Assembly: GCA_965228875.1 (NCBI GenBank)
Contig: OZ245843.1
Location: forward strand, 2,648,616 to 2,712,615
Length of the DNA: 64,000 bases
Direction: 5' to 3'
Origin: Thalassobaculaceae bacterium
GTDB lineage: Bacteria > Pseudomonadota > Alphaproteobacteria > Thalassobaculales > Thalassobaculaceae
Position numbers and translations under genes: made by a program. A model generated the notes under the pieces. That model did not search any database. It was not told where the DNA came from and saw nothing but the letters and a program-made list of their open reading frames with translations. This document shows positions 17,632 to 36,673 of the stretch, piece after piece. The number at the start of each line of letters is the position of its first letter. Position 1 is the first letter of the stretch.

Positions 17632-17645
17632 TCCGTCCGCCACCC

Positions 17646-18629: not shown

Positions 18630-18844
18630 CGCCCACCTCCCGTATCGGCCGCCGGGAAACCGCACCGCGACCGCCGCGGCCGATTGCACCCTTCGGCCAG
18701 GAATGATTCTATGGCTTGCCCTTCGGACATCGCCCCAGCGGGGCCGCCCGTCGGGACAGTATCTAGCACGAACCCGGCCGCCGGGTCGCGGGGTCAAGTG
18801 ACTTCGCACGGCGAACGCCGCGCAACCCGCGCCCTGGAGCCGTC

Positions 18845-19726
18845 ATGTCGCCATCCTCATCGTCGGACCCCGCGCACTGGCTGACGACCGACGAGGTCGC
18901 GGTGGATTTCGGGCGCGCCCCAACCGGCGCTCCCGGCGGACGCACGGCGCTGGCGGCAACACCCCTGCTGGTCCTCGTCGGCCTGACCGGAGCGGGCAAG
19001 TCGGCGACGGTCGAGGCCCTGGTGCGCCTCGGCGCCGTTCGAGCGGTGCTGCCGGACCGGCGTGCGCTGACAGACCGGATCATCCTGCCGGCGATGACCG
19101 GCGATCCCGACCGCCGGGTGGCCGATCGGATCGAGCGGTTCCGGCTGACCGCCGCTTTCCGCGAACGTCATCCGGGCGGGATGGGCGCCGTCTTGGCGCA
19201 CCTGTCCATCGAGTCCGCGCTCGCATCGCGGATCGGCACGGGGTGGATCGTCTTCGACGGTGTGCGGGGAGCGGCCGAGGTCGAGGCCGCGGCACGGCTG
19301 CCGCAGACCGTATTCGCGGCACTGCAGGCCCCGCCGGAGATCCGGGTCGCTCGGCTCAGCCTGCGCGGCGACCCGTTCGACCGGGCGGCGCTGACGGAGG
19401 CCGGCGGGCCGCCGGAGACCGGACCGGTCGATGACGACTACGTCCGGGTGCTGATGGAGCAGGGGCTTGAAGACCTGATCGGGCCGTCGGCGCTTCGGCG
19501 GTTGAGCCGGTTGCTGGCCGGGGCTGGCGCCGAGGTTGCGGCGGTGGCCGCCGCCGCCTCGATCGTCGTGGAGGAATCCCGCCACTACGATCCGGCCGAC
19601 GCGCTCGCCGTCCTACGGGAGCGGGTACCGGGCCGGTTGGTCGTCGTCGACACCGCGGAGAACGGCGTCGACGACGTGGTGACACAGATCGTCGCGGAAC
19701 TCGTCCAGCCCCGCGCCGCGTCCTGA
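18845..19726 (+). CDS. P-loop NTPase/kinase-like protein of unknown function
   Basis: LVLVGLTGAGKS Walker A, VFDGVRG, and APPEIRVARL resembling a nucleotide-kinase lid. Confidence 0.7.
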   Translation: MSPSSSSDPAHWLTTDEVAVDFGRAPTGAPGGRTALAATPLLVLVGLTGAGKSATVEALVRLGAVRAVLPDRRALTDRIILPAMTGDPDRRVADRIERFRLTAAFRERHPGGMGAVLAHLSIESALASRIGTGWIVFDGVRGAAEVEAAARLPQTVFAALQAPPEIRVARLSLRGDPFDRAALTEAGGPPETGPVDDDYVRVLMEQGLEDLIGPSALRRLSRLLAGAGAEVAAVAAAASIVVEESRHYDPADALAVLRERVPGRLVVVDTAENGVDDVVTQIVAELVQPRAAS

Positions 19727-20104
19727 TTACTCGCCCGTGTACCAGGCGTCGGCGTACAGACCGCCGCTGACCGCACCGAGCAGGCGCATGCTGCCCCGGA
19801 AGAAGGCATAGCCCGGCGTATGGACCAGCGCGAGGGCGCTGCCCTGACCGAGCGCGCCGATGCTGGAGCCGGTCAGCATGCCGTAGACCGGCAGGATCAG
19901 ACCATCGGTGACGATCGTGGCGACCACCGCACCGCCGACCACGCCGGCGGTCACGGCGACGGCCCGGTAGGCGTCGAAGCCCGACGCCTCGATCGATTCC
20001 GGAACGGCCGGCACACTGCTCTGGGCCTGGGCGCCGGTGGCACCGGCGACGACGAGGCCGAGAACGACCACCAGGGCCCTGGCGAGCATGGAAAGCTTGG
20101 TCAT
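19727..20104 (-). CDS. Exported/membrane glycine-zipper small protein 1
   Basis: Signal peptide (AQA); AGVVGGAVVA and LLGAVSGGLYADAWY GxxxG segments. Confidence 0.7.
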   Translation of the reverse strand: MTKLSMLARALVVVLGLVVAGATGAQAQSSVPAVPESIEASGFDAYRAVAVTAGVVGGAVVATIVTDGLILPVYGMLTGSSIGALGQGSALALVHTPGYAFFRGSMRLLGAVSGGLYADAWYTGE

Positions 20105-20176: not shown

Positions 20177-20578
20177 TCAGTCACGGGCAAAGTAGTTGCC
20201 GGCCAGCCCGCCCCCGAAGGCGACGACGGCCGTTGCGAGTGTGTGGATCGCCATCTCGCCGGCCAGCGGCGCGGTTCCGAGGGCCGCCAGCCATGTGCCG
20301 CCGATGACGTTCGATGTCTGCAGTCCGACGACCGGGGCGAGCGCCGCCCCACCGGTGACGACATTCAGTGCCAAAGCGCCTCCGGCGGCGCCGAGAAACG
20401 AACCGCCGAGCGAACTGACGAGTACGGCGTCAGTGTCCCGCGCGTCGTCGAGCGACTGCACGATGGTCGGGCCGAGCGCGGGCTGGCCCGCCAAGCCGCC
20501 CTGTTGGGCCGCGACGGGCGACGCCACCAGAGCGAGCGCTACCGCGGCGATTGCGAGAATTCCGTTCGTCTTGCCCAC
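20177..20578 (-). CDS. Exported/membrane glycine-zipper small protein 2
   Basis: GTG start after AAGGGGG; signal peptide; LGGSFLGAAGGALALN and AFGGGLAGNYF. Confidence 0.7.
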   Translation of the reverse strand: MGKTNGILAIAAVALALVASPVAAQQGGLAGQPALGPTIVQSLDDARDTDAVLVSSLGGSFLGAAGGALALNVVTGGAALAPVVGLQTSNVIGGTWLAALGTAPLAGEMAIHTLATAVVAFGGGLAGNYFARD

Positions 20579-20954: not shown

Positions 20955-21479
20955 ATGGAGCACAGCGCCGAACAGATCGTCGCGCACTGTAGCGGCGCCT
21001 TCAGCACCCTCACGCTGTTCGAGACGCACCTGGCCATCGACCGCGGCCAGCTCATCTGCGATTTCCACGAGATCGTGTTCCGCTCCCACCCGGTCCGCAA
21101 GAGCCGGATCGAGATCGCCGAGATCACCGATCTCAGCCTCACGGCATCGATGATCCTGCCGCCGCTCTTCGTCATCCGCTATGCCGGTTGCTCGCAGCTC
21201 ACCGGCTCGATCCTGCACGACGCCATTCTTGAAAACGTCCACATGCTCAGCTTCGTTGACAACCGCCCGTTCTACGCGCTGTACCATGCGCTCGACGACA
21301 TGATCTCCGAGTTCCGGTCGCGGGCGTTGGACGAGGGCGACACCGACGCGGCTCCCGCCGGGATCGACGCCCAAGACCCGAGCGACCCGGAACAGAAAGA
21401 CCCGGAACGGACCGAGCCGGACCAGACCGACCCAGGATTGCCCGCACCGGCGCAGTCCGACAGAACAGCGACGACCTGA
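20955..21479 (+). CDS. Hypothetical protein (beta-rich N-terminus, acidic Pro-rich tail)
   Basis: GC3-biased ORF, first gene of the 20955-24179 operon. Confidence 0.65.
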   Translation: MEHSAEQIVAHCSGAFSTLTLFETHLAIDRGQLICDFHEIVFRSHPVRKSRIEIAEITDLSLTASMILPPLFVIRYAGCSQLTGSILHDAILENVHMLSFVDNRPFYALYHALDDMISEFRSRALDEGDTDAAPAGIDAQDPSDPEQKDPERTEPDQTDPGLPAPAQSDRTATT

Positions 21480-21483
21480 TGCC

Positions 21484-22596
21484 ATGACGCTTCGCACTGC
21501 CGCGACCTACCTGTTCTCGCTCGCGATCCTCGGGGCTTTCGCCACCAGCGGGGTCTACGCGTTCCGCGGATCGCCGTTCGGTGGCCAGGAGAACGCCGCC
21601 GAGTTCGTGCGTCCCGACTGGGCGCGCGAGATCAACAACCACGTCGGCTTCCCCGCCTACAGGCTGCGCGACGACGGCTCGTCGGTCGCCATCGGGCGGG
21701 TCGTGATGCTGGGGCCGGAACGCCTCGAGGTTTCGGTGTTCCCCGACGTGCACATGCCGCCGCTGGGCGAGGCGCGGGTGCTGCTGCTGGAGACCAACGC
21801 CCGCTCCCTGCTGGCTCTGGTTCCAGACGCGTCCAGGGCGCAGATGGGGCGGGACATGGAGCGGGTCGCCCGCTCGATGCGCGACCGCTTCGTGTCCATC
21901 GTGCGCGACCCGGCGTTCGACGAGCGGTACCGCACCCGCCTGCAGGATATCGTGGTCGACGCCTACCGCAGGGTCCGGGCCGATCCGGCCCTGGATCTCG
22001 CCACTGACCGGGCGATCGAGATCTATCGCCACGAATACGCTCCCGAACTCAGCAACAGCCTGCTGATCGCCGCCGTGCCACGGATGCGCGCCGCCGCGCT
22101 GGAGATGATGACGCCGAGCTGGCAGAGCATGATCGACCTGATCACCGAAGGCAGGGTCGACTACAGCCCGCTCGGCGACGCCGCTGCCGACCTGCTGCGC
22201 AATGACAGCTTTTTCGACTCGCTCGTCGTCCACGCCCTCGACCTCGGCCGCGACCGGCGGTTCTGGCGGCTCGGCGTGCTGCTGGCCGATGCCTTCATCG
22301 ACGAGATTTCCGACGATCCCCGCACCGAGGCGCTGCTCGACGACATTGCCCGGGATCCGGCCTTCCACACCGAGCTGCAGGTGCTGGAGCGGGAGGCCGC
22401 GACGGCGGCCACGACCATGTTCTCGAGCGTCGTCGGCCGCGGGCCCGAGATGCGCCCGGACACCCTGGCGGTCCGCATCATCCGTTATATCCTGCTGCGC
22501 CGTCCCCGCGTCGTCGCCGTCGTTCTCGAGGAGGGCGCCACGCCGCCCTCCAGCATGCTGGGACGCTTCGCCCCCCTGACCAAGGCCGGATCTTGA
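21484..22596 (+). CDS. Membrane-anchored protein with a long helical region (possible MCE/MlaD analogue)
   Basis: N-terminal TM, short beta-rich segment, then helical region; stop overlaps the start of the MlaF-MlaE fusion. Confidence 0.65.
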   Translation: MTLRTAATYLFSLAILGAFATSGVYAFRGSPFGGQENAAEFVRPDWAREINNHVGFPAYRLRDDGSSVAIGRVVMLGPERLEVSVFPDVHMPPLGEARVLLLETNARSLLALVPDASRAQMGRDMERVARSMRDRFVSIVRDPAFDERYRTRLQDIVVDAYRRVRADPALDLATDRAIEIYRHEYAPELSNSLLIAAVPRMRAAALEMMTPSWQSMIDLITEGRVDYSPLGDAAADLLRNDSFFDSLVVHALDLGRDRRFWRLGVLLADAFIDEISDDPRTEALLDDIARDPAFHTELQVLEREAATAATTMFSSVVGRGPEMRPDTLAVRIIRYILLRRPRVVAVVLEEGATPPSSMLGRFAPLTKAGS

Positions 22597-24179
22597 CCCT
22601 GACTCCGAACGATGTTTCCGGCGGGCCCGTCCTCACGGTCTCGTCGCTCTCGATCACGCAGCCGGCCGGACGGGTCCTGCTGCGCGACGTCGATCTGTCG
22701 CTGAACGCCGGCGAGATCGTCATCCTCGCCGGACCGAGCGGTAGCGGAAAATCCACGTTCATCAACCTGCTGTCCGGCGCGATCGATCCGCGCGAGGACG
22801 GCTGGCAGGCCTCCGGCTCCGTCGCCTACGGCGGCGGCACCTACGACCTGGCCAGCGACCGGGTGGCGATCGGCGGCGTGGTGTTCCAGAACTTCGCGCT
22901 GTTCGACGACCTGTCGATCGCCGACAACCTCGCGATCGCCAGCGATCACAGCGCACCGGTCGGCCAGGGCCTGCGGGAGGCGATCGATCACCTGCTGGAG
23001 GACGTCGACCGGCACCGGCCAGTGGGCGCGGCCAGCGGCGGGCAGCGCCAGCGCGTCGCCATCGCCCGCACCCTGCTGGGCAACCATCCGGTGCTGTTCC
23101 TCGACGAGCCGAACTCCGGTCTCGACGTGTCGTCCTCGCGCCAGCTCGCCCGCCTGCTGCGCGACCTGGTCGACGAGGTCGGGATTCCGCTGGTCATCAT
23201 CGCCCACCACTTCCGCCACCTCATCGACATCGCCGACAGGATGATGGTGCTGGACTCCAACGGACACACCCTGGTCGAGCTTCCGGTCGCCGGCGACGCC
23301 ATCGAGGCGGCCCTGTCGGCGGTGGAGAGCGGCGAGACGGTGACGCCGGCCGAACCGGCGCCGCGACCGGAGCGCAGGGAGCCGGACACGACCGCGGCCG
23401 CAAGTCCGCCATCGGCCCTCGCCAGCCCGGAATGGCGCCTGGAATGGGCGCTGCGGTACTTCTTCGGCTACATCTGGGAGCTGTGCTTCGCCCCGTCGGC
23501 GCTGCTGTTCGTCGGCCTCGGCTGCACCATCGTCGGTTTCGTGACGACCTGGTTCATCTTCATGTACCTGCCGTTCCGCGACTACCTGCTGCCGGTCATT
23601 CATTCCGACGCGCTGGCCGGCCTTGCCTTCGCCGAACTGCGGGTGCTCGCGCCGCTGATGGCGGCGGTGCTGATCAGCGTGCGCAACTGTTCGCTGATCA
23701 CCGCCAATATCGGCCACAAGGTCTATTCCGATCAGATCAAGTCGATGCGCAACCTGAACGTCCCGCACCGGCTCTACCTGAACACCATGATCATGACCGC
23801 GTCCGCGGTGGCGGCGGTGTTCCTGGCGGTCGTCGCGGTCAGCGTCACCGCCTGGATGACGATGATGACCTGGTCCCAGATCTTCCCCGACGGCTCGACC
23901 TACATGTGGCGCGACCAGTTCTTCCAACGCCTGTGGCCCCCGGGCGTGTCCATCATGGTCGGCTGGGACTGGATCCTCGCCAAGAGCGTGCCGTCGATCG
24001 TCGGCGCCGCCGCCATCGCGCTGTATTTCGGGTACCGTCCCAAGAAGGACGTCCTGGACATCAACAGGGCGATCGCCCAGTCGCTGATCTGGGGGCTGTC
24101 CTTCGTCCTGACCTGGCAGTCCATTCTCACGCTCGTCGAATTCAAGCAGGTGTCCGCCCGGCTCGAAGCGACGTTCTGA
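22593..24179 (+). CDS. ABC ATPase fused to an MlaE-type permease
   Basis: GPSGSGKST, VFQNFALF, ASGGQRQR and LFLDEP, followed by the MlaE-like LRVLAPLMAAVLISVRNCSLITANIG...QIKSMRNLNV...YL. Confidence 0.85.
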   Translation: MTLTPNDVSGGPVLTVSSLSITQPAGRVLLRDVDLSLNAGEIVILAGPSGSGKSTFINLLSGAIDPREDGWQASGSVAYGGGTYDLASDRVAIGGVVFQNFALFDDLSIADNLAIASDHSAPVGQGLREAIDHLLEDVDRHRPVGAASGGQRQRVAIARTLLGNHPVLFLDEPNSGLDVSSSRQLARLLRDLVDEVGIPLVIIAHHFRHLIDIADRMMVLDSNGHTLVELPVAGDAIEAALSAVESGETVTPAEPAPRPERREPDTTAAASPPSALASPEWRLEWALRYFFGYIWELCFAPSALLFVGLGCTIVGFVTTWFIFMYLPFRDYLLPVIHSDALAGLAFAELRVLAPLMAAVLISVRNCSLITANIGHKVYSDQIKSMRNLNVPHRLYLNTMIMTASAVAAVFLAVVAVSVTAWMTMMTWSQIFPDGSTYMWRDQFFQRLWPPGVSIMVGWDWILAKSVPSIVGAAAIALYFGYRPKKDVLDINRAIAQSLIWGLSFVLTWQSILTLVEFKQVSARLEATF

Positions 24180-24356: not shown

Positions 24357-25265
24357 ATGCAGCAGTTCCTCGACTTCATGGGCGCCATGCGCGGCGGCCG
24401 GAGGTTCGTTTCCCTGGAGGAGGAGCGCGGGCTGCTTCAGACCGCCACCACCCGCCACGGGATGACCCTGGACGATGCCCGCTCGGCCCTGCTGGTCGGC
24501 GCCCGGCAGTCCGACCTGCTTCTTGAGAGCGAGGTCGCCGACGAGGTAACCGCGTTTCTCTCCGCCCGGATCGGCCAGGACGGCCGGGTGAGCAGGGCGA
24601 ACTTCCGCGCCGCCGTCGACTTCTTCGCCCGGCGCACGGGCAATGCCGTCTCGCCGACGGAGGCCGAGCAGCGCGTGCGCCAGTTGGTGGTTCGCGCCGG
24701 CTGGACCCCGGCGCCCGCCGGCTGGCTGTGGCGCAGCACCGCCTGGTTCGACTCCATCCCGGCCCCGACGCCCCGCGCTCGGCCGATGCCGCCGGGGGTC
24801 GGCCTCGAGCCCGGTACCCTTCATGGCGGCGCTCCCCAGGGCGGCGCACCGATGGCGACCGGCGACCCGGGCTCGGTGCTGTCGACCTGGGCCGCCGCGC
24901 TGCGGTCGCGCAACGTGGAGCGGATCCTCGCCCTGTACACCCAGGACGCGCTGCTGCTGGCGACGGCGGAGCACCGACCGCTGATCGGCCCGCCGCAGAT
25001 CCGGACCTATTTCGACCGCCTGACCTCCTACGAGGGTCTGACCGTCACCTTTCAGGAAGAGTTGCAGCGGCTGAGTTCCGACCGGGCGACAACGATCAGC
25101 GGGCTGTACACCTTCGCCTGGATCGACCCGGCAAGCGGCGCCGAACTGGTCACCCCGGCACGCTACACCTACACCGTGCGGGACGGCGACGGCACGCGGG
25201 CGCGGATCAGCCTGCACCACTCCTCCCGGCTGCCCGGAAACTACCCGGGAGCGACCGAGATCTGA
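24357..25265 (+). CDS. Unknown helical domain fused to an iota-carbonic-anhydrase-like / CaMKII-association (NTF2/SnoaL fold) domain
   Basis: C-terminal W..AL, LY..DA.LL(A)T, IRTYF, SGLYTF, PARYTY and HHSS motifs; alternative start at 24261. Confidence 0.75.
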   Translation: MQQFLDFMGAMRGGRRFVSLEEERGLLQTATTRHGMTLDDARSALLVGARQSDLLLESEVADEVTAFLSARIGQDGRVSRANFRAAVDFFARRTGNAVSPTEAEQRVRQLVVRAGWTPAPAGWLWRSTAWFDSIPAPTPRARPMPPGVGLEPGTLHGGAPQGGAPMATGDPGSVLSTWAAALRSRNVERILALYTQDALLLATAEHRPLIGPPQIRTYFDRLTSYEGLTVTFQEELQRLSSDRATTISGLYTFAWIDPASGAELVTPARYTYTVRDGDGTRARISLHHSSRLPGNYPGATEI

Positions 25266-25320: not shown

Positions 25321-25746
25321 TCAGGTCTGGCGGCCTTCCTCGACGATCTTCACGCCGCCGATCCGCGAGTGGAAGTGGGCGTAGCAGAGGCCGATGCACA
25401 TCACCACGACCAGCGTGAACTGCATGGCGTTGACGAGATCCGTGCGGCTCTCGATCACCACCCACTCCTTGTCGATGGCGAACAGGGCGCCGGCCGAGGT
25501 GGTGATCGTCACCAGAAGCAGTCCGGTGCGCTGCAACGCGACGGCCCCGGTCTCGGTGATGTTGTAGACGGCGAAGCCGAGCATGCCGAAGCAGCAGATC
25601 TTCAGGATGATGTCCTGGTCCGGATAGTCCACGACCCAGTGGTAATACGAGTATCCGCTGGTGTTGTACGAGGCGAACACCACGAAGGCCGGATAGAGCA
25701 GCCGGGCCAGAATCCCGCCGGGGCCGAGGATGAAGTGTCCGTCCAT
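25321..25746 (-). CDS. DUF6524-like small membrane protein
   Basis: VFASYNTSGYSYYHWV motif, four hydrophobic segments, C-terminal HFHSRIGG. Confidence 0.65.
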   Translation of the reverse strand: MDGHFILGPGGILARLLYPAFVVFASYNTSGYSYYHWVVDYPDQDIILKICCFGMLGFAVYNITETGAVALQRTGLLLVTITTSAGALFAIDKEWVVIESRTDLVNAMQFTLVVVMCIGLCYAHFHSRIGGVKIVEEGRQT

Positions 25747-25819: not shown

Positions 25820-26791
25820 TCAGCAGGCCGCGGCCACCGTCGGCAGCCGACACAGGGAGGTCGACAGGCGGGCCCTGGCATCGGCGATGGTCAGGTCGCG
25901 CTGCTCGCGAACGACAGCGGTGAGTGCGCCCTCCAGTTCCGGCCGGTTCAGGGCGCTGTCTGCCCAGTTGATCATGTAGTCGGCGCCCCAGAGGCCGGCG
26001 GCCAGCACGCCGGAGAAGAGCGAAGCGCCGACCAGCCCGCCGGCGTCCAGCGTCGCGGCGGCGGCGGCACCGCCGAGGGCCGGGATCACCAGCGGCACGA
26101 CGACCATCCGTGTGGCGGCGCTCAGCATCCGGATCGACAGCGGCCGCGCGGAACGGACCAGCACCCGGTCCGCATGGGGCCGATCGTCGTCACCCACCGC
26201 CGCCACCAGCCGGGCGCCGAGCGCAAGCCGTTCCGGTGCCGGCGGCCGCCACCCCGCCAGCAACGGTTCCGCGAACCGGGATGGCGCCCCCCGATCCGCC
26301 CGCTGACGCGCAAGCCGGCGGTCCAGGCGGCGGAGTTGCTCGACCGTGCCCGCCCAAGCCGTCGCCAGGTCCCGCGCGGCGGTCTCCGGCACGATCACCC
26401 GGTCCTCGAACTCGTCACCCACATAGGTTTCCAGATCGCGGACGACACCGGCACCGTCGATCCGTCCGTCGCGTGCGATCTGGGTCCCGGCGGCCTGGAG
26501 CCCCACGCCGGCCAGCCGCGCGCTGACCTCGATGCTGGACAGCCAGCCGTAGATCCAGCCGCCGTAGTCCGGAATCCGGTCCTCGATCCGCTCGAAGGGC
26601 TGCGCCAGCCGCTTCGCCACCAGGTCGTCGGCCGCCAGCCGCAGCGTGAGGGCATCGCGTGCGACCCAACGTTGGGCCCGAACCTCCGAAACCGCGGCCG
26701 AGGCGCCGCCCGCCGGGTACACGACCGTCCAAAGGATCAGCGCGAAAAGCCCACAGGCAATAGAAATCAACAACCGTTGCGAATATTTCAT
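25820..26791 (-). CDS. Hypothetical membrane protein with a glycine-rich hydrophobic hairpin
   Basis: N-terminal TM, helical middle region (RIPDYGGWIYGW), LGGAAAAA..GGLVGASLFSGVLAAGLWGADY. Confidence 0.65.
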   Translation of the reverse strand: MKYSQRLLISIACGLFALILWTVVYPAGGASAAVSEVRAQRWVARDALTLRLAADDLVAKRLAQPFERIEDRIPDYGGWIYGWLSSIEVSARLAGVGLQAAGTQIARDGRIDGAGVVRDLETYVGDEFEDRVIVPETAARDLATAWAGTVEQLRRLDRRLARQRADRGAPSRFAEPLLAGWRPPAPERLALGARLVAAVGDDDRPHADRVLVRSARPLSIRMLSAATRMVVVPLVIPALGGAAAAATLDAGGLVGASLFSGVLAAGLWGADYMINWADSALNRPELEGALTAVVREQRDLTIADARARLSTSLCRLPTVAAAC

Positions 26792-26966: not shown

Positions 26967-27413
26967 ATGAAAGCGCTGGCTTACTTGTTGTTTTCCGCCG
27001 GCCTCATGATTGGGTCCGTGTCGGCGGCGTCGGCGCAGCAGACCGCTCCGGCGGCGACACCTCCGGCCGTCGAGAGCGCGGTGTCCTCGGCCGAGGCGGT
27101 CGGCGGCGCGGTCCTGACGCCCGAGCAGCTCGAGAATCTGAACGCCCTTGTCGACCAGATGCAGGACAGCATGGACGACATGGTTCAGGCGGCCCGCGAT
27201 GCGGCGCTGCAGATCGGCAGTGACACCAAGACCGTGGTTCTGACCACCAACGACGTCGTGGCCATCGCCATCGGCTCGGTCGGCGGCGCGCTGGCGGTCG
27301 ACCTGCTGGGCGGCGGTGGCATCGCCACGCTGGCCGGTGCCGTGGTCGGCGGCGTGGGGGCGCACTGGCTGATGACGCGCTCCGACGATCTGTTCGAGCT
27401 GCCGTCGTACTGA
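26967..27413 (+). CDS. Exported/membrane glycine-zipper small protein 3
   Basis: Signal peptide (ASA); AIAIGSVGGALAVDLLGGGGIATLAGAVVGGVGAHW. Confidence 0.7.
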   Translation: MKALAYLLFSAGLMIGSVSAASAQQTAPAATPPAVESAVSSAEAVGGAVLTPEQLENLNALVDQMQDSMDDMVQAARDAALQIGSDTKTVVLTTNDVVAIAIGSVGGALAVDLLGGGGIATLAGAVVGGVGAHWLMTRSDDLFELPSY

Positions 27414-27589: not shown

Positions 27590-28036
27590 ATGGCGTCAGA
27601 TTCAGAGACGAGACGGCGGTTCGCCGACATGGTCCGCATCGAGGGGATGAACGGCGGGTTCATCCGCGCCGAGGACGAGCGTCGCCTGCTTCAGGAAGGC
27701 ATGACCCGCTTCAACCTGACCCTCGACGAAGCCAACGGCGCCATGCTGGCGACGGTCAACGATCAGAAGCTGGTGCTTCAACGGGTCGCCGACGAGGGAA
27801 CCCGCGAATTCCTCAACATGCAGGCCAACCGCGGTCGCCAGCGCCGCCTTTCCCGCGACGACTTCCGGCAGGCGGTGGAACTGTACCGGGCCAAGGCCCG
27901 CCAGCGGGTCTCCGAGGACGAGGCCAAGCGGCGGGTGAAGGCCCTGATGCTCGAAGAGGGCATCACCGCGAAGCGGCACGGCTGGTTCATCCGGTCGCGA
28001 CGCTGGTTCAATTCCATTCCGGAACTGCTTGCATAG
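27590..28036 (+). CDS. Stand-alone paralog of the N-terminal domain of the 24357 protein
   Basis: Shared motifs E(E/D)ER.LLQ, TR...TLD(D/E)A, SR..FR.AV, VS..EA..RV and GW..RS..WF.SIP. Confidence 0.75.
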   Translation: MASDSETRRRFADMVRIEGMNGGFIRAEDERRLLQEGMTRFNLTLDEANGAMLATVNDQKLVLQRVADEGTREFLNMQANRGRQRRLSRDDFRQAVELYRAKARQRVSEDEAKRRVKALMLEEGITAKRHGWFIRSRRWFNSIPELLA

Positions 28037-28091: not shown

Positions 28092-29789
28092 ATGGCGAAC
28101 CGACCACGGCTTCCCAACGTGGATCCCGAAGACCTTGCGAAGCTGGCGAGCCAGTATCCGGGAAGCCGCACCTCCGGTGAGGCCGATGCGTCTGCCGGCG
28201 GCACGGGATCGGGTGGATCGGGTACCGGCAGCGCCGGGACGAGTGCCGCGGCCGCCTCTCCCGCCGGCACCCCGTCGTCGCGACTTTCCGCCTCCCGTGG
28301 CAGTGGCAGTGGCAGTGGCTCCTCAGCCGCCGGCGGCGCGGCCGGCAGCGGATCGGGCGGCGGTTCGGCCAGCAGGTCGGGCGGAACCTCCGCAACCGGC
28401 ACGCCGCCGCCGGCCAAGGCACGCGGCAGCTGGTCGGCAGCATTCCTGACATTTCTGTTCGCCGTGATCGCGCTCGCCGCCGCCGTCGCCTCGATCGGCG
28501 CGCCCAGCTACCGGGCGGAGATCCGCGCGCTCCTGACTACCTACGTGAAACCCCATCTGGACCTCGAACAGGACACGATCGACATCGTCTCCGGCTACGA
28601 CACCGACCGGCTAGAGGTGACCTACGAAGGTCTGGATCAGCGGATCGAACAGCTCGCCGCCGCCCTCGATCGCGTCGCCGCCACCGACGGCGTATCGGGT
28701 GACGATGTCCGGCAACTGCTGTTCCGCGACGAGACTGCAGACCGGATCGACACCATGGGCGACGGGCTCGACGCCCTGTCGGGACGCGTGGCCACGATCG
28801 CCGACGAGGCCGCCGCGCAGGCGGACCGGATCGACGGCCTCGGCGCCGATCTCGCCGCCACCGGCGAGCGCCTGACGGCGGAGATGACCGGCACCGCCGA
28901 CCGCATGTCGGCCGAACTGGCGACCGCCATCGAAACGGTGCGGACCGAGACGACCGCCGACTTCGAATCCCTGAACGCCGACCTGCAGGAGGCCGTTGCC
29001 CGCGTCGAGGGGTCGATCGCCTCGCTGCAGGACGCGCTGACGGCCGCCCGCGGCGAGATCGATGCCCTGTCCCCCCGCATCGACGGGATCGACACCGCGA
29101 TCGAGAATCAGGTCTCAGTTGATGCGGCGATCGCCGATCGGCTGAACGCGGTGGACGAGCGCGTGGACGGTCTGGTGGGCGACTTCACCGACCTCCTGGA
29201 CCTGAGCGACCAGGTCGCCCAGACGGTCAGCACGTTCAAGAACGAGAACATGCCGATCCTGGCGGTGATCCAGCTGCGCGACGCGATCAACCGCTCCGGC
29301 CCCTACGGCCCCGAGCTTTCCTTCGCCCGCCGGGTCCTGAACGGCGCCCCGGGAATCCAGGCGGCTCTTGAGAAACTGGATTCCAGCGCCTCGGACGGCA
29401 TCGCCTCCGTGCCCGAACTGCGGCGCGATCTGCGGCTGATCGCCCGGAATCTGGGAACCATCGTCGCCCAGGTGGAATCCTGGTCGGATCGGGTGTCCGG
29501 CTGGTTCAACATGCTGGTCGGCGCATCCGCCGTACCCGAGGTCCGGCAGGGCGGCAGCGTGGTCGCGGTCGTGGCGACGATCGACGACGCGCTCGACCGG
29601 GGCAACCTGGAGCTGGTGATCCGCGAAGGCGCGGCGCTTCAGGCCGAGTGGCGGTCGCCGGCTCTCGCCGACTGGCTGCAGGCGGTGGTCGAGCGCATGG
29701 AGGTCACGGCGGCTGTCGGCACGCTCCAGGACGTGGTCTACACCCGTGCGACGACGTCTCAGCCCAAGGGGACGGACAAGGCCCAGTAG
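28092..29789 (+). CDS. Mitofilin/Mic60-like (COG4223) membrane protein A
   Basis: Gly/Ser-rich N-terminus, one TM, long acidic coiled coil, then the C-terminal pattern LRDAINRSGPYGPEL, ASDGIASVPELRRDL, WSDRV, ALDRGNL, ADWL. Confidence 0.75.
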   Translation: MANRPRLPNVDPEDLAKLASQYPGSRTSGEADASAGGTGSGGSGTGSAGTSAAAASPAGTPSSRLSASRGSGSGSGSSAAGGAAGSGSGGGSASRSGGTSATGTPPPAKARGSWSAAFLTFLFAVIALAAAVASIGAPSYRAEIRALLTTYVKPHLDLEQDTIDIVSGYDTDRLEVTYEGLDQRIEQLAAALDRVAATDGVSGDDVRQLLFRDETADRIDTMGDGLDALSGRVATIADEAAAQADRIDGLGADLAATGERLTAEMTGTADRMSAELATAIETVRTETTADFESLNADLQEAVARVEGSIASLQDALTAARGEIDALSPRIDGIDTAIENQVSVDAAIADRLNAVDERVDGLVGDFTDLLDLSDQVAQTVSTFKNENMPILAVIQLRDAINRSGPYGPELSFARRVLNGAPGIQAALEKLDSSASDGIASVPELRRDLRLIARNLGTIVAQVESWSDRVSGWFNMLVGASAVPEVRQGGSVVAVVATIDDALDRGNLELVIREGAALQAEWRSPALADWLQAVVERMEVTAAVGTLQDVVYTRATTSQPKGTDKAQ

Positions 29790-29807: not shown

Positions 29808-30422
29808 GTGGAACCCGGTGAACTGCTCGCAGCGCTCGGTGCCCGCCTGGTCGGCGGCATCGTCCTGGTCGCTCTGCCCGTGGCCGGATATGTGGTTGCG
29901 AACGCGGTCTGGCGCGTCCACGCCCTTCACTTCTTCCACCGGGTCACCCTGCTGTCGAAGCTGGCGATGGCGACCGGCATCCTGCTCGGCATCGGCGTGA
30001 TCGCCGCGTCGGACGCCCGGCCGTCCTTCGACATCAACGATATCCTCGCCGCAGGCGGAGCCTGGGACCTGCCGTGGCGGAAATTCCTCGCCGATATCGG
30101 CAATCCGGGCCTCTACGACTACGCGCCGCTGTGGATACACCTGACGACCGCCGAACTCGACGGCCCGTGGGTGGTCTACGGTGTCGCGGTCTCCGCGGCC
30201 GGTATCGCGAGCGCCGTCGCCCTGCTCGCGATGCTTCGCGGCGAGGAGTTCCTGATCGGCGTCGTCGCCATGCTGTACGAGATCCTGGTCATGCAGGCGC
30301 TCACCATGTACGCGGTCCTTCTCCTGGCCTACGCCCTGTGCACGTTCAATTTCTGGACGGTGCTGATCGCCCTGATGGTCCTGCAGTATTACAGGTACGT
30401 TAAACATCCGGCCGGGCACTAG
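29808..30422 (+). CDS. Hypothetical integral membrane protein
   Basis: About five hydrophobic segments; lies between the two Mic60-like genes. Confidence 0.7.
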   Translation: MEPGELLAALGARLVGGIVLVALPVAGYVVANAVWRVHALHFFHRVTLLSKLAMATGILLGIGVIAASDARPSFDINDILAAGGAWDLPWRKFLADIGNPGLYDYAPLWIHLTTAELDGPWVVYGVAVSAAGIASAVALLAMLRGEEFLIGVVAMLYEILVMQALTMYAVLLLAYALCTFNFWTVLIALMVLQYYRYVKHPAGH

Positions 30423-30522: not shown

Positions 30523-31902
30523 ATGGTCGTGACGGACGAGGACACCGGCGGCACCGCCAAGACGACGAAGCGCAAGTCCGCCTCGACGGCCTCGCGCTCG
30601 ACCTCCAAGCCCCGGGCGAGAACCGGATCGGCCAAGACAAGTGCCTCCAAATCCGGCGCCACAAAGGCCGGTTCTGCAAAGACCGGTGCCTCGAAGACCG
30701 GTGCCGCGAAGACCGGGTCGGCCAAGGCCGCCTCTACGAAGGCCCCTGAGACCAAGGCCCCTGAAACCAAGACACCCGAGACCAAGACACCTGAGACCAA
30801 AACACCGGCGACGCAGGCCGCCGCCGCCAAGTCGGCAGCCAAGTCCGCCGCTCCCCCGACACCGGAAGCTTCGGTGTCGGACGCCCCCAAGACCGAACCG
30901 ACCAAGACCGACTCCCCGCAACCCGAAACGCCGAAGGCTGCAGCCCCGATGACCGACGCTTCGAAGACTGAGACCCCGAAAACGGATGCTCCGAAGACGA
31001 CGCCGCCCCAGGCTGCCGCGGCGTCCTCCGGCCCCACGACAGGTGGCGGCACGGGTGGATCCGGCAGCGGCGGCGGCGGAGGCTCCTACCCCGCGCCGGC
31101 CGTGGCACCCCAGCCCGCGAGCGGAGGCCTGTTCAGCATGCCGATGGTCCTCAGCCTCGCGGCGATCGTGATCGCGATCCTGATCCCGGTAATCAACCAG
31201 AAGGCCTACGAGCCGGCCATTCAGCCGACCGACATCGCGGCGCTGGAGACGACCCAGGCCGAGCTGGCGGCGTCGGTGGCCGAGATCAAGGCGAGCATCG
31301 ACGCGCTGTCCGTTCAGCAGGACACGCTGCGGAGCTCGATCTCGGCGGTCAGGATTCCGGCCGTGATGATCGCCGCCTCCGACCTGCGGGCCGCGATCGA
31401 GTCCGGCGAGGAATTCGCCGAGCCGCTAACCCTGTTCGAGGCTATCGCCGGCGAGAATGAGGCCGTTGCGTCGGTCTACGAACTCCGGCCCCTGGCCTTG
31501 GGCGGCATCCCGACGGTCAAGGAACTGCAGGCGGCGTTCGGCAATCTGTCGCACGAGGTGGTCGCCAGCTATCAGACCGTCGCCTCCGAAGGCGACCTCG
31601 CCAAGCGGGTGTCAGAGACCATGGCCAATCTGACGGCGGCGACCACGCGGCTGCGTTGGCGCCTGGACGGCACGACCCCGCCGGAAGGGGACTCGCCCCT
31701 GGCGGTGATGGCGCGCGCGGAGATCGCCGCCGCCAAGGCCGATTTCGATGCGGTTGTCGCGGAGATCGAGACCCTGCCGGAAGACCTCAAGGCAATCGCC
31801 GCCGGCTGGATCGAGCAGGTGCAGGCGCAGAAACAGGCGACGACGGCGATCGAGGATCTCGACCTGTTCATGATCGAAACCCTCGCCAGTGCGCGGAAGT
31901 AG
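30523..31902 (+). CDS. Mitofilin/Mic60-like (COG4223) membrane protein B with a Lys/Ala/Thr-rich repetitive N-terminus
   Basis: One TM, coiled coil, then LRAAIESGEEFAEPL, GGIPTVKELQAAF, AVMARAE...ADFDAVVAEIETLP, AGWIEQVQA. Confidence 0.78.
   Translation: MVVTDEDTGGTAKTTKRKSASTASRSTSKPRARTGSAKTSASKSGATKAGSAKTGASKTGAAKTGSAKAASTKAPETKAPETKTPETKTPETKTPATQAAAAKSAAKSAAPPTPEASVSDAPKTEPTKTDSPQPETPKAAAPMTDASKTETPKTDAPKTTPPQAAAASSGPTTGGGTGGSGSGGGGGSYPAPAVAPQPASGGLFSMPMVLSLAAIVIAILIPVINQKAYEPAIQPTDIAALETTQAELAASVAEIKASIDALSVQQDTLRSSISAVRIPAVMIAASDLRAAIESGEEFAEPLTLFEAIAGENEAVASVYELRPLALGGIPTVKELQAAFGNLSHEVVASYQTVASEGDLAKRVSETMANLTAATTRLRWRLDGTTPPEGDSPLAVMARAEIAAAKADFDAVVAEIETLPEDLKAIAAGWIEQVQAQKQATTAIEDLDLFMIETLASARK
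30630..30810 (+). repeat. Coding 15-bp (pentapeptide) tandem repeats KTGAA/KTGSA and KAPET/KTPET
   Basis: aaggcccctgagacc aaggcccctgaaacc aagacacccgagacc aagacacctgagacc..., preceded by aagaccggtgcc units. Confidence 0.8.
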
Positions 31903-32001: not shown

Positions 32002-32655
32002 CTAAGCCTCGGAGAAGAGGACCGGCTCGATCTCGCGGGCGAGGTTGCGAATCTCCAGCGCCGCGCGGTTCTTCGGCGCGAGGCTGAGCGGAGAGGCGCC
32101 GTGATAAGAGGCCTCCTGGAACACGACCCGGTCGCCGATCCTGGCGTTCAGCGGCCGCAGGCCAAGCTGTTCGAGGTTGCGTTCCGTGTGGCGGACCACG
32201 GTCGTCATCCGCTTGACCCGATTGAGCACGGAGTGAAACGGGATGTCGCGGCGCGTCAACTTGCTGGCGCTGTCGATCACCTGCTTCATCTTGGCCGCCT
32301 CGAACAGGCTGGCCTCGTCGGGCATGACGGGGACCAGCACCATGTCGGCGACGCCGACCGCATAGACCATCGCCTGGTTGCCGAACCCGGCGGTATCGAC
32401 GATCACGATATCCGCCTCTTCGCCGAGCGCGTAAACGCTCTCGATGATCTCGTGCTCGTTGGAGTTGGCGCTGACGGAGATGTCCTGGAAGCCGGTCCCG
32501 CTCTTGCGGGCCCAGCGCGCCATCGCCTCGTTCGGATCGGTATCCAGAATGGCCACCGTCTTGCCCTGGTCGCGCCAGTAGGAGGCCAGGGCGGCCCCGA
32601 TGGTCGTCTTTCCCGTTCCGCCTTTACTGGTGGCTACCACAAGGATACTGGCCAT
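32002..32655 (-). CDS. Short ParA-family ATPase (type Ib-like), no parB adjacent
   Basis: ATSKGGTGKTT, LDTDPN, IVDTAG, VLNRV and RVVFQEA. Confidence 0.9.
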   Translation of the reverse strand: MASILVVATSKGGTGKTTIGAALASYWRDQGKTVAILDTDPNEAMARWARKSGTGFQDISVSANSNEHEIIESVYALGEEADIVIVDTAGFGNQAMVYAVGVADMVLVPVMPDEASLFEAAKMKQVIDSASKLTRRDIPFHSVLNRVKRMTTVVRHTERNLEQLGLRPLNARIGDRVVFQEASYHGASPLSLAPKNRAALEIRNLAREIEPVLFSEA

Positions 32656-32783: not shown

Positions 32784-33377
32784 ATGAACGCTCGGAAATC
32801 CTCGAACAACCGCAGGTTCCTGCGGAGTACGGTCTGTGTAGCCGCGCTGGCGGCGGCACTCGCCGTGGCCCAGCCGACGCCCGCCAGGGCCGGCCTGGTC
32901 AGCGACGCGCTGGGCACGATGGCGCGCTGGGTATCGGGAATCGAACAGATCATCACCGAATGGTTCGACGCGACCATCGGCACGATCAAGGTGATGGACC
33001 GCGAGGAGAGCGCGGCCCGCGCCGTCGCCGAGATGGCGTTGCAGGATCCGACCACCCTGGCCGAGATCGCCGGCCGTGCCGGGTTCCGTCTCTCCACTGT
33101 CAGTTTCGCGGACGGCGGCAGGCACGTCGACGGTCTGAGCTTCGCCTACGAGCAGATGATCCCGCGGGAAGGCCGCCTCGCTCTCTGGCGCGATGTGCTC
33201 GAGGTCGAGGACACGCCCTTCCGTCCGGAGATGGAACTGGTCCGTCTGCTGCTGAACGCCTCCGACATGCAGGAGAACCGGGCTCCGGCGGGTCTCACGC
33301 TGGCCGGCGTCGCGATCGCCCTCGACGACGACACCCTCTCCGCCTCATGGCGGTTCGAGCCGCTGCCGACCGAGTAG
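32784..33377 (+). CDS. Exported protein with a probable Tat signal
   Basis: NRRFL followed by a hydrophobic stretch and ARA cleavage site. Confidence 0.65.
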   Translation: MNARKSSNNRRFLRSTVCVAALAAALAVAQPTPARAGLVSDALGTMARWVSGIEQIITEWFDATIGTIKVMDREESAARAVAEMALQDPTTLAEIAGRAGFRLSTVSFADGGRHVDGLSFAYEQMIPREGRLALWRDVLEVEDTPFRPEMELVRLLLNASDMQENRAPAGLTLAGVAIALDDDTLSASWRFEPLPTE

Positions 33378-33407: not shown

Positions 33408-34199
33408 CTATCGCATCACGTTGAGGAAGGCCGTCGGACTGATCGACGCGTCTCCGATGAACGGATAGCTCAGCTGCAGCACCATCAGGAGGTGCAGCAT
33501 GAGGAACGACGTGAGCAGCGCCGACATGAACGTCTGCGACATCACGTTCACCGTCCCAAAGAACCACGGGAACATGATCGCCAGCAGCGTCCCGCTGATC
33601 AGCACCGCCCAGACCAGGGCGATCAGCGAGCGCGACACCGTCGTCAGGCGCAGGGCCCGGTACTCGTTGATCTGACTGACCCAGTCGACGGTGTTCTGCT
33701 GCAGCGATTTCTGCGCCTCGGTGGCCGGTTCGACCCGCATGAAGGTGTCGTTCATGTCGGCCAGGCGGGTCGACACGTCCGGATCGGCGAGACCGTAGCT
33801 CATCACCCGCCATTCCTTCTCGACCACCGTGCGGGCGTATTCCTGAACGGCACGGCGCATCGCCGCCCGGTCGTCCGCCTGTTGCGGCAGATCGTAGGTG
33901 TCGGCGGCATAGGAGAGCGAGGCCAGCGTCGCCGCCTCGCGCTGGGCGTTGGTCTGCGCGGTGGTGAAATGGTCGAAGGCCCCGATCATGGCGAGGCCGA
34001 GCGTCACGGCATAGACCTCGCCGAGAAAGCCGAACTTGGCACCGCCGACCAGGTTGTTCGGCTCCAACTCCAGCGGTGTGAAAACCGAGTTGACCAGCCA
34101 TGACCCCAGAATGGACAGCAGGATGCCGACGGCTATGGCGAAGGGTATCGCCGTCGTCAGAGGGATGCTCGCGAGCTGCAGACCGATATCGTAGGTCAT
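33408..34199 (-). CDS. DUF4239 (bestrophin-like) membrane protein
   Basis: GEVYAVTLGL, AQREAATL, YARTVVEKEW, R.LR and QLSYPFIGDASISPTAF pattern with 2+2 TM helices. Confidence 0.75.
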   Translation of the reverse strand: MTYDIGLQLASIPLTTAIPFAIAVGILLSILGSWLVNSVFTPLELEPNNLVGGAKFGFLGEVYAVTLGLAMIGAFDHFTTAQTNAQREAATLASLSYAADTYDLPQQADDRAAMRRAVQEYARTVVEKEWRVMSYGLADPDVSTRLADMNDTFMRVEPATEAQKSLQQNTVDWVSQINEYRALRLTTVSRSLIALVWAVLISGTLLAIMFPWFFGTVNVMSQTFMSALLTSFLMLHLLMVLQLSYPFIGDASISPTAFLNVMR

Positions 34200-34244: not shown

Positions 34245-34655
34245 TCAGTGATGCTCGCCCTCAAGCTCGCCCTTGCCCGCGTGGACCTCGCCGTCCCTGG
34301 TCCTGATGCGGATGACAGCATCTACCCCATCCGGCAGGTGATCGTCGAGCCGGCCGATCAGCGCACCCTCTGCGACCACCAGCGACACCCGGGTCGGTCG
34401 GCCGCCGATCAGCAGCACCACGTCGCCGCCGGTGGCCTCGCCGGTCAGGTCCTTGCCCTCATGTTCGAACAGCCGAACCTCAAGCTCCTCGTCATGAACC
34501 ACGATCTCGGCGTCATACGGGCCGACGGCGATGATCTGCCCACCGTTCGGCCCCTCATCGTGCTCGCCATGGGCGTGCTGAGCCAGGGTGGGAGAGGCGG
34601 CAGCGACGGTGCCGGCGACGAGGGCGGCTGCCACGAGATCACGAACGAGACGCAT
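34245..34655 (-). CDS. Exported His/acidic-rich putative metal-binding protein
   Basis: Signal peptide, then QHAHGEHDEGPNGGQ; C-terminal GEHH. Confidence 0.7.
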   Translation of the reverse strand: MRLVRDLVAAALVAGTVAAASPTLAQHAHGEHDEGPNGGQIIAVGPYDAEIVVHDEELEVRLFEHEGKDLTGEATGGDVVLLIGGRPTRVSLVVAEGALIGRLDDHLPDGVDAVIRIRTRDGEVHAGKGELEGEHH

Positions 34656-34930: not shown

Positions 34931-36067
34931 ATGTCGGCGCGCGCCCCCTTGGATCTGGCTGCCTACGATAAGGTACAACAGGCGCTCGAACGCGCTCTGG
35001 CCGATCCGCTCGCTACCAGTTCCGCCGCGCGGGCCGCGGCGGGCTGTGCCGACGGCCATCGCGAAGCCAGTCGGCGGGCGCTCGCCCAGGGTGGCGCCCT
35101 GCGCCGGGCGGCTGAGCAGGGTCGGCTCCGTGTCCGTCAGTGCCTGCGGGACACGGCCCTTCCCGCCATCGACCGGTTCTTCGCCGGCCTGGCCACACGA
35201 TCCTGGCAGGACGATGGCGCCAGCCTCTCCATCGAGGACGTGACCCCGCAGGAGGCGGCCGTCCTGCTTCGGGCCCTGGCCGAGTGGGAACGCTCGGGCT
35301 CGACCGATACCGAGGTGAACGCCCTGGTGTCGAAGGTCTGCACCAGGATGACGGCCGATGCGAAGACCTGCGTCGACCGCTTCAAGGCGGAACAGTCGCC
35401 GGAGGATGCCCCGGACTATCGGGCCGTCGCCACGACCCTGGTCATGTTCGAGGCGATGATCTATCTCGCCGCCCATCTCCGGCGGGACGCCGCCGCCGCC
35501 GAGATCGGCCGCCAGCGCGACCACTACGCCAAGACCGCCCTGCTCGCCGCGCTGTCGGTGATCCAGCGGGCGGAAGAGACGACGGACATGTTCGTGCATT
35601 TCGACATCGCCGCCATGCTGGTTTCGGTGGAGAACGTGGTCGTCGTCATCTCCCGCACCATCGCCGTCATCGACCGCGAGCGCGACCAGTCCCACCCCTT
35701 CGTCGAGACGGTCAGCGAGCACGTGGTCCGCGATTTCGCCAACGGCCTCAAGCGTCTGGCGCCCACCTATCTGCGCATGCTGCGCAACGCCACGGCGCGC
35801 GACAATGCCGTGCCGCAGTTCGCGTTCTCGGTGGTCCAAGTTCTCGTGCAGCTCGCCCGTCTGCTTCGCATCCTGCACCACCTCCTTCAGGACCCGGCAT
35901 TGGCGGCGGGAGCGGACGAGATCGGCGCCGACGTCGGCGCGATGGGCGAGCGTCTGCGCCAGATCGCCGCCGGCGATCCGGATCAGCTCGGGCGCCTGGA
36001 CGGGGCCATTGACGCGCTGGGTTCCACGCCGGAAATGACGCGCCCCGTGCCGGCGGCGCCCGCCTGA
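34931..36067 (+). CDS. Hypothetical all-helical protein
   Basis: 378-aa GC3-biased ORF; stop overlaps the next start (TGATG). Confidence 0.65.
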   Translation: MSARAPLDLAAYDKVQQALERALADPLATSSAARAAAGCADGHREASRRALAQGGALRRAAEQGRLRVRQCLRDTALPAIDRFFAGLATRSWQDDGASLSIEDVTPQEAAVLLRALAEWERSGSTDTEVNALVSKVCTRMTADAKTCVDRFKAEQSPEDAPDYRAVATTLVMFEAMIYLAAHLRRDAAAAEIGRQRDHYAKTALLAALSVIQRAEETTDMFVHFDIAAMLVSVENVVVVISRTIAVIDRERDQSHPFVETVSEHVVRDFANGLKRLAPTYLRMLRNATARDNAVPQFAFSVVQVLVQLARLLRILHHLLQDPALAAGADEIGADVGAMGERLRQIAAGDPDQLGRLDGAIDALGSTPEMTRPVPAAPA

Positions 36068-36615
36068 TGTCCTCGCGGAACCGTCCCGCCCTGCTCGGCG
36101 CGGCCCTAACCGGACGCATCGCCGCAGCGCTCGACCGCCTGTGCCGGGGAATCCGGCGACCCGCCGCCGCGCCTGCGACATCGCCGGCGACGCTCCATCT
36201 CTCGGCCGCCAACCGGATCGGGGAACTCGACCGGCTCGCAACGGTGATCGGGGAATTCGCCGAGGCCAATAGCCTGCCGCAGCGTCAGGCCATGCACCTG
36301 GACCTGGCGATCGAGGAGATCGTATCGAATGTCATCAAGTACGGCTTCGAGCCGGGTGACGAGCGGGACGACGCGGTCGACATCACGCTCGTCCTCGACG
36401 GCAGGCGGCTCGCCATCAGGATCCGCGACCGCGGCCGGCCGTTCGATCCGCTGGCCGACGCGCCGGAGCCGGATACCGATGCCGGGGTGGCCGACCGCAG
36501 GATCGGCGGCCTCGGCGTGCATTTCGTGAAGCGGCTGATGGCCGACCTGCGCTACAGACGCGAGGGCGACAGCAATGTCCTGGAGATGGTGCTGGACCTG
36601 AACGGGCCGTCATGA
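36067..36615 (+). CDS. Anti-sigma factor / Ser kinase (RsbW/SpoIIAB-like, HATPase_c_2)
   Basis: LAIEEIVSNVIKYG, IRDRGRPFDP and IGGLGVHFVK. Confidence 0.88.
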   Translation: MSSRNRPALLGAALTGRIAAALDRLCRGIRRPAAAPATSPATLHLSAANRIGELDRLATVIGEFAEANSLPQRQAMHLDLAIEEIVSNVIKYGFEPGDERDDAVDITLVLDGRRLAIRIRDRGRPFDPLADAPEPDTDAGVADRRIGGLGVHFVKRLMADLRYRREGDSNVLEMVLDLNGPS

Positions 36616-36673
36616 CGCCGACACCAGGACCGGTGTAGACTCGCCCTCCGGCCGACAGAAGGAAAGCAGAGCA

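Follow-up and report, generated by a model that had tools for sequence, protein, structure and literature searches.

The open reading frame at 27590-28036 of the window (the whole 64,000-nucleotide stretch of Thalassobaculaceae DNA analysed here) encodes a real, unnamed small protein domain, which occurs a second time at the N-terminus of a carbonic anhydrase (CA)-like protein, and its stand-alone gene is a core member of an undescribed cluster of membrane-protein genes. We slightly favour the reading in which the domain works as an adaptor in the cytoplasm: it would dock on a membrane structure for which the cluster is responsible and bring the CA to it. Cluster and domain most likely serve to locate CO2/bicarbonate chemistry at an internal membrane of its own, which may be a compartment where a mineral forms. 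The domain copies and the enzyme part are located as follows:

27590-28036, + strand: stand-alone copy of the domain, 148 aa, soluble, net charge +7, in no Pfam or NCBIfam family (BLASTP, AlphaFold)
24357-24767, + strand: second copy of the domain, forming the N-terminus of the fusion protein (BLASTP, alignment)
24867-25235, + strand: iota-type (COG4875-like) CA domain of the fusion protein (gene 24357-25265, 302 aa), assigned by SnoaL_2, 3H51 and motif

The stand-alone frame opens with an ATG, and BLASTP aligned residues 20-144 of its product with residues 11-135 of the 24357 protein, with 54 of 128 positions identical (42%, E 3e-25). The sequence-only reading of this DNA had proposed exactly this relationship from five pairs of short motifs, all of which were found, in register. 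The local score of the two copies was 213, compared to a mean of 30 (SD 5.3) and a maximum of 63 in 500 shuffles, which rules out chance similarity. The duplication is an old one, because at the DNA level the copies could be matched over just 136 nt, at 68%. A profile built from relatives found exactly two copies in the complete genome, the 27590 and 24357 genes, and the closest named database matches are Thalassobaculum proteins with 60-91% identity. The position directly upstream of Mic60-like A, also read from the letters, is correct, with a gap of 55 nt to the ATG at 28092. The two copies may associate with each other; in complex prediction the stand-alone domain with the fused one scored 0.27 and 0.28, against a mark of 0.32, which speaks neither for nor against such an association.

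A match to a known, unrelated family, which would have undermined the idea of a new domain, was found neither in Pfam nor in NCBIfam nor in the PDB: the window protein gave no Pfam match at cut-off and no NCBIfam match, 112 family members gave no consistent Pfam match, and the profile search of PDB sequences found no relative (best E 0.086). The family is nevertheless large, as 226 representatives (50% identity clusters) among the 1.84 billion searched match the domain profile at E <= 0.001, and an unnamed Atlas cluster of 2473 members, at 0.93, is probably the same family. In the AlphaFold model (pLDDT 96, 112 sequences) the domain consists of two three-helix lobes, with predicted helices at 2-19, 27-40 and 45-58 in lobe 1 and at 64-79, 89-102 and 109-122 in lobe 2, loops that hold short strands, a short helix at the terminus and a Trp/Arg tail; an acidic member from Thioploca has the same predicted fold. 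The two internal units already noticed in the letters were recovered by profile comparison, half 1 matching half 2 with a probability of 63% (E 7e-5, 54 columns) compared to 0.3% in the reversed control and 6% in the acidic subset alone, and the halves are therefore a probable internal repeat. Trp139 is invariant and Glu30 and Phe92 nearly so. A tail window of 16 residues contains on average 5.2 hydrophobic and 3.7 basic residues, and no TM segment is predicted in the domain. Foldseek of the model against the PDB returned nothing at E <= 0.001, and wide searches with VIA-align gave best Z values of 7.1 and 6.2, none reaching 8, with single lobes matched only (Tic110 6.6, ENT 6.8 and TerB 5.6, all at background level); such single-lobe matches to a predicted model establish neither a new fold nor the absence of TerB kinship. 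The family splits into a basic group (n=222, mean net charge +6.7), to which both window copies belong, and an acidic group (n=157, mean -1.3).

The C-terminal part of the 24357 protein has a SnoaL/CaMKII-AD fold, with Pfam SnoaL_2 over cut-off, and matches PDB 3H51 with E 7e-11; the Thr, the Tyr and the HHSS in which the domain ends are kept and aligned with those of 3H51. Judged by its sequence, it has the features that define iota-CAs, namely an NTF2/CaMKII-AD-like domain, kinship to COG4875 and the HHSS, Thr and Tyr residues. These residue types are described as required in COG4337 iota-CAs in PMC8132391, according to which CO2 hydration activity was not confirmed for 3H51 itself. The protein thus shares the NTF2-like barrel and the HHSS, Thr and Tyr with the iota-CAs of COG4875 and COG4337 (X. 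campestris 3H51, B. territorii BteCA-iota, Anabaena all2909). According to PMC8425729, an N-terminal pre-sequence is the general start of bacterial iota-CAs; by contrast, in the 24357 protein, which has no hydrophobic N-terminal segment, the new domain takes the place of the pre-sequence, and the fusion is predicted to be cytoplasmic for this reason.

The attachment of a CA to the domain recurs. In the order Thalassobaculales 17 of 63 genomes are positive, each with exactly two copies, and in all 14 of these 17 for which the second copy was fetched it is an iota-type CA fusion. The Thr..Tyr..HHSS pattern is found in 13/14 fusions of the order and in 25/27 database fusions. Among the 150 representatives listed of 226, 21 proteins are at least 227 aa long: 12 are iota-type fusions (2 of them cut off inside the CA part), 5 carry a beta-type CA, and the remaining four contain, one each, HEAT, vWA-TerF-like, TPR and unassigned sequence. 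The beta-type CA sits N-terminal of the domain and the iota-type C-terminal. The Cys-x-Asp-x-Arg..His-x-x-Cys motif is intact in 35/35 beta proteins (mostly near-copies) and in 3/3 genomic copies, so that by sequence these fusions would have the zinc site expected of a beta-CA; Pro_CA_2 is over cut-off in 2/5 beta-type representatives. In another alphaproteobacterial family (f55), 5/12 genomes match the domain, and the iota-type enzyme of the same cluster is swapped for the beta-type. In one genome (G590) the beta fusion lies 5.7 kb from a stand-alone gene, inside a parallel cluster that comprises bestrophin-like, NFW, Mic60-like, DUF6524, MlaA, ParA and ABC-MlaE genes besides the stand-alone domain, and the genomes G458, G588 and G591 have the same block. 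For iota and beta fusions alike, a stand-alone copy lies nearby wherever the length of the contig allows it to be seen.

When 69 domains were placed in a tree, a single branch held the iota and beta fusion copies, with two stand-alone entries nested in it; its support (91/84) is moderate, not strong. The fusions may thus go back to one recruitment followed by an enzyme swap, instead of two independent events, and the simplest history is that of a single paralogue carrying a CA, in which the enzyme and the order of fusion were altered. Whether there was one recruitment or two, the attachment of a CA appears to be what is kept. The address tag that recruits the enzyme, as the sequence-only reading had imagined it, hence gains strong comparative support, since an iota-CA and a non-homologous beta-CA are both carried, while the membrane binding that it added is plausible. 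As separate observations, one genome (G533) has an alpha-CA gene 2.4 kb from the domain gene, a single case, and in the genome studied here an alpha-CA-like gene (G000:C1:2728149-2729147) is located close to an MlaD-family gene, about 15 kb past the window's end.

Around the two domain genes, the window contains the following cluster members:

15196-16311, - strand: membrane-anchored TPR protein, a conserved cluster member (locus comparison)
19727-20104, - strand: small glycine-rich membrane protein 1 (locus comparison)
20177-20575, - strand: small glycine-rich membrane protein 2 (locus comparison)
20955-21479, + strand: conserved soluble protein of no known family (locus comparison)
21484-22596, + strand: conserved protein of no known family, usually directly upstream of ABC-MlaE, with no MlaD likeness
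22593-24179, + strand: ABC ATPase fused to an MlaE-type permease (Pfam)
25321-25746, - strand: DUF6524 membrane protein (Pfam E 6e-29), present in 17/17 positives of the order
25820-26791, - strand: conserved membrane-anchored protein of no known family (locus comparison)
26967-27413, + strand: small glycine-rich membrane protein 3 (locus comparison)
28092-29789, + strand: Mic60/mitofilin-like A, with N-terminal peptide, linker, one TM, coiled coil and mitofilin-like C-terminus
29808-30422, + strand: 4-5-TM protein with an 'NFW' motif, of no family, the commonest neighbour of the domain (24/24 loci)
30523-31902, + strand: Mic60/mitofilin-like B (Mitofilin E 0.0025, below cut-off)
32002-32655, - strand: short ParA-family ATPase (NF041546 E 4e-42, below cut-off)
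32784-33377, + strand: conserved exported or anchored protein of no known family (locus comparison)
33408-34199, - strand: bestrophin-like membrane protein (PF14023, E 7e-45)
34245-34655, - strand: small exported His-rich protein, a relative of which adjoins a CusA-type RND gene in another genome (G026)

Both Mic60-like proteins have the Mic60 architecture; the 28092 protein itself has no Pfam match, one of its cluster relatives passes the Mitofilin cut-off, and the cluster Mic60 profile finds the canonical Mic60, with E 8e-25, elsewhere in this genome. Ordinary MlaD genes are likewise located elsewhere in the genome, and comparison of four cluster proteins of no known family revealed no MlaD partner for the ABC-MlaE protein. 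An Atlas search with the 29808 protein returned nothing. In Mic60-like A, a conserved N-terminal peptide of 25 aa precedes a low-complexity linker, the one TM and the coiled coil; over these first ~25 residues (window 28092-28170) the family is 68-84% identical, which is not the case for the linker behind. The peptide is basic and contains Leu-Pro; it is a candidate motif for binding or for the stimulation of ParA.

The conservation of the cluster was evaluated in 24 alphaproteobacterial genomes, whose loci were read over about 8-60 kb, with gene families defined by all-against-all BLAST and profiles built from the loci themselves. The NFW gene was found at all 24 loci, DUF6524 at 20, a Mic60-like gene at 16, ABC-MlaE at 13, the bestrophin-like gene at 7, any CA at 7 and ParA at 6, so that the commonest neighbour of the domain is the 29808 protein and not Mic60-like A; MlaA, the TPR protein, CusA/HlyD-type RND genes and small glycine-rich membrane proteins recur as well. 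Within the order, DUF6524 is over cut-off in 17/17 positive and 1/46 negative genomes, and the bestrophin-like gene is present in 16/17 and 1/46, respectively. As these genomes are kin, the counts are not independent and show a block that is passed on or lost as a whole. When the class was sampled evenly, 6/401 genomes had the domain and 19/401 had DUF6524 over cut-off, 14 of the 19 without the domain; in these 14 (L051-L060, L062, L067-L069) DUF6524 has no cluster gene within 1.5 kb and no domain match accompanies it.

Among Azospirillaceae 35/130 genomes have the domain, nearly all in single copy, and most Azospirillum clusters have no CA nearby. The named carriers are A. cavernae, A. melinis, A. 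palustre, A. halopraeferens, Azospirillum sp. B510 and Skermanella aerolata; cultured ones are Thalassobaculum spp., A. cavernae, A. melinis, S. aerolata and Azospirillum sp. B510, where the cluster is on plasmid pAB510b. Several loci depart from the common arrangement. In one (G054, L046:6768-11720) an insertion of about 5.7 kb, made up of unrelated genes, separates the CA fusion from DUF6524, and in another (G534, L117:9564-10538) a divergent domain copy is fused to a long Asp/Glu-rich region; the second, weak match of this genome is an acidic 325-aa protein without CA. In a group of Azospirillaceae loci (L115-L119, L127), which includes two magnetochrome-bearing genomes (G530, G531), the domain gene adjoins AMP-binding, ATP-grasp, PP2C-like and kinase genes, and three short Gly-rich peptide ORFs, possibly precursor peptides, are located at L119:14801-16131.

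The mechanism that we propose for the adaptor would be the following. The basic-aromatic tail, or a membrane partner, for which the 29808 protein is the best candidate, would bind the domain to the cytoplasmic face of the membrane structure. The extra Mic60 paralogues and the glycine-rich membrane proteins would shape this structure, ABC-MlaE and, in relatives, MlaA would supply it with lipid, and ParA would position it. The fused copy, through the same address, would hold the CA at the structure, where it would produce HCO3-/H+ beside the bestrophin-like putative anion channel, a role that is assumed from the family name of PF14023. The likeliest product would be an invagination or vesicle that stores ions or carbonate. 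As reported in bioRxiv 10.1101/2022.06.14.496148, intracytoplasmic membranes and magnetosomes owe their shape to Mic60 and its magnetosome-island paralogue. The CA would be a recurrent cargo of the machine and not its core: 17/24 loci have no CA of the classes covered (iota, beta and alpha) within the 8-60 kb read, which, like the distant acidic relatives without the cluster, speaks against a pure carbonate role. Against the mechanism as a whole stand the bestrophin-like gene and ParA, found in just 7/24 and 6/24 loci.

A more far-reaching interpretation, which we put forward tentatively and hold to be doubtful, is that the cluster is the gene set of an unrecognised membrane-bounded organelle storing carbonate or another mineral, with the domain as its cytoplasmic coat and address label. 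It would be patchily distributed in culturable Thalassobaculum, Azospirillum, Skermanella and some magnetotactic Azospirillaceae, with CAs of different classes attached, and in vacuolated Beggiatoaceae the tandem paralogues would form this coat on a different internal membrane. The magnetosome island, with a Mic60 paralogue, the TPR protein MamA and small Gly-rich membrane proteins, resembles the cluster in its Mic60 paralogues, TPR protein, Gly-rich proteins and ion transporters; ferrosome fez clusters are another type of membrane-organelle cluster. By contrast with these systems, there is no P-type ATPase here, and CA, bestrophin-like and ABC-MlaE genes are present instead. In a scan of 20 window proteins, no NCBIfam magnetosome model reached its cut-off (MamA, 34.6 bits compared to 200). 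As for carbonate, the intracellular amorphous Ca-carbonate (iACC) inclusions of magnetotactic Azospirillaceae are bounded by a bilayer, lack known genes and occur without ccyA, the calcyanin gene of cyanobacteria; this follows from PMC11773610, whose supplements could list genes of the cluster. The domain is present in 4/7 magnetochrome-bearing Azospirillaceae, in versions that look reduced, compared to 31/123 others, the carbonate formers among the 7 not being told apart; the other 3/7 (98-100% completeness) have neither the domain nor DUF6524. Unlike the iACC bearers, the domain carriers were not found to have a reported carbonate phenotype, and the link of the domain to carbonate inclusions gave a mixed result. 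Few bacterial organelle gene clusters have been described, and this one unites membrane-shaping, lipid-transport, positioning and inorganic-carbon parts; it occurs in cultured strains, and was not found in some of their relatives of the same genus or family. Should there be no organelle, the domain would still be a new targeting module, to which a CA stays attached although enzyme class and fusion order change, and domain and cluster give a context to DUF6524 and several unnamed families.

A simpler arrangement, which we regard as unlikely, would do without any compartment: the cluster would encode a complex for envelope contact sites or lipid traffic, seated on the ordinary inner membrane, to which the domain tethers the CA for local bicarbonate or pH buffering, to the benefit of, for example, carboxylases or the transporters. 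The ABC-MlaE, MlaA and Mic60-like genes are indeed more constant than the CA or the bestrophin-like gene, and inclusions in these hosts were not found in the literature searched (titles and abstract openings). Nevertheless, the Gly-rich membrane proteins, the 2-3 extra Mic60 paralogues and the cluster-linked ParA fit a shaped and positioned structure better, and the retention of ordinary Mic60 and MlaD genes elsewhere in the genome also tells against it.

Relatives of the domain outside the cluster were found in the acidic group, whose hosts are Beggiatoaceae-type genomes, Gemmataceae and Hormoscilla. At the Beggiatoaceae-type loci (L136-L170, L200) the domain genes form tandem arrays, with 2-4 paralogues in 28/36 loci; as a side observation, HAD phosphatase and DUF6901 genes often follow these arrays. 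The Gemmataceae copies lie beside rpsR and an MFS gene, sometimes with a Na/Ca exchanger, and in Hormoscilla (L172:9480-10414, L175) the domain gene directly follows terB in a ter-type cluster. A genome scan with two peptide patterns, which fit the acidic clade alone, listed no Achromatium record and so carries no weight on the absence of the domain there. No CA and no cluster-specific gene was present at 65 acidic-clade loci, where generic matches only (TPR 13, ParA 1, MlaA 1) were recorded; since the domain family works without them, its sequences suggest a general role that the alphaproteobacterial cluster uses, and this role is probably structural, given the tandem paralogues.

These relatives bear on the likeness of the helix-loop-helix units to EF-hand and TerB loops. 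The EF-hand half of this earlier suggestion is not supported for the window copies: a PROSITE-style pattern for a loop of 12 residues whose positions 1, 3, 5 and 12 hold acidic ligands is found in 0/379 members, window copies included, and a weak Pfam EF-hand match occurs in 1/112 members (E 0.0025). The domain shares helix-loop-helix units with EF-hand proteins, and acidic loops are seen in the Beggiatoaceae/Gemmataceae clade, whereas the loops of the window copies and their clade are basic (MNGGFIRAEDE, RGRQRRLSRDDF) and, in the window copies, without acidic ligands. The TerB half persists as a weak signal, half 1 matching TerB in HHalign with a probability of 40% (E 3e-4, 42 columns; low-diversity set of 35 TerB-family sequences). 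The window protein has no match to PF05099 (TerB), and TerB is absent among the 25 listed of the 39 Pfam families matched by the 112 members. The TerB/DjlA N-terminal fold (PF05099, 2OU3) and the Tic110 repeat (4BM5) are likewise built of two helix-loop-helix units, I-x-x-x-E standing at the end of a loop, and lobe 1 of the domain superposes on them with Z 5.6-6.6. TerB differs in that only one domain lobe aligns with it (2OU3, Z 5.6, rmsd 2.7 over 58 residues; Z 4.8 in the second search) and in that its metal-site loops, of the form [AS]DG..E, are nearly missing from the family (3/379, none of them a window copy). To our knowledge, neither a Trp/Arg tail nor CA fusions are features of TerB.

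That the domain is a TerB-like metal (Ca2+)-sensing or stress module, whose fusion couples the CA to a metal signal, is in our view quite improbable. It would agree with the acidic loops of about 40% of the family (DDxYIDxxEE-type in 157/379, the acidic group; DGx[IV]DxxEF-type in 140/379), the JGI label 'EF-hand superfamily' on 6 among the 120 acidic members listed, the Hormoscilla copy directly 3' of terB, the Na/Ca exchanger near some Gemmataceae copies, the TerB profile match and the Atlas neighbours at 0.77, which include TerB, ENT and Tic110 clusters. The window clade, however, has basic loops and its mean net charge of +6.7, the EF-hand and [AS]DG patterns are missing or nearly so in the family, and the fit of 2OU3 to one lobe is within background.

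The same basic charge could point to a polyanion instead of a membrane, the domain tethering CA and membrane complex to DNA/nucleoid or polyphosphate, a possibility to which we give very little weight. Besides the net charge of +7, the nucleic-acid-binding three-helix folds among the best lobe neighbours (homeodomain, L11-C, RecX; Z 5-7), a UniRef label RecX on one member, the ParA of the cluster and the Na/Pi and phosphate-binding genes that flank the cluster in one genome (G427) would agree with it, but Z 5-7 is background for helical models, the acidic clade retains fold and tail without the charge, and the neighbours are almost all membrane proteins. In that genome genes for a Na/Pi cotransporter and for a phosphate-binding protein continue the cluster on one side (L043:15674-19949), and ZnuA/ABC-3 and CusA-type genes lie on the other.

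A role in a RuBisCO CO2-concentrating mechanism or in photosynthetic membrane biogenesis, suggested by the pairing of CA with bestrophin-like proteins that is reportedly used in algal CO2 concentration, is barely credible and largely refuted, as RuBisCO is over cut-off in 0/17 positives and absent from this complete genome, and reaction-centre genes, found in 7/17 positives and 4/46 negatives, are missing in 10/17 and in this genome. The usual reasons for having a CA next to internal membranes thereby fall away, and the handling of ions, pH or minerals is left for the docked enzyme.

Domain and cluster were assigned to no known family or system, because by sequence the domain does not qualify as EF-hand or TerB, nor the cluster as a magnetosome or carboxysome one; their novelty is meant as the absence of a described family, and their function is proposed conditionally, as above. 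The literature search, judged by titles and abstract openings, with subscription papers and supplements outside its scope, found no description of the cluster and no mention of DUF6524.

Some further genes were observed at the borders of the cluster and in the rest of the window. Next to the cluster, at 12734-19726, lie genes for an MFS fusion, an ABC substrate-binding protein, TauD and a P-loop kinase-like protein, and in Azospirillum sp. B510 an MFS gene and substrate-binding genes flank it likewise. On the other side (34931-37006), a 378-aa gene of no known family precedes genes for an anti-sigma-type HATPase and a STAS protein, so that a partner-switch regulator may adjoin the cluster. Finally, at 960-3310, a CHAD-domain gene (E 1e-47) is followed by a ParA-like gene, possibly a polyphosphate-granule pair, given the role in such granules that we presume for CHAD.
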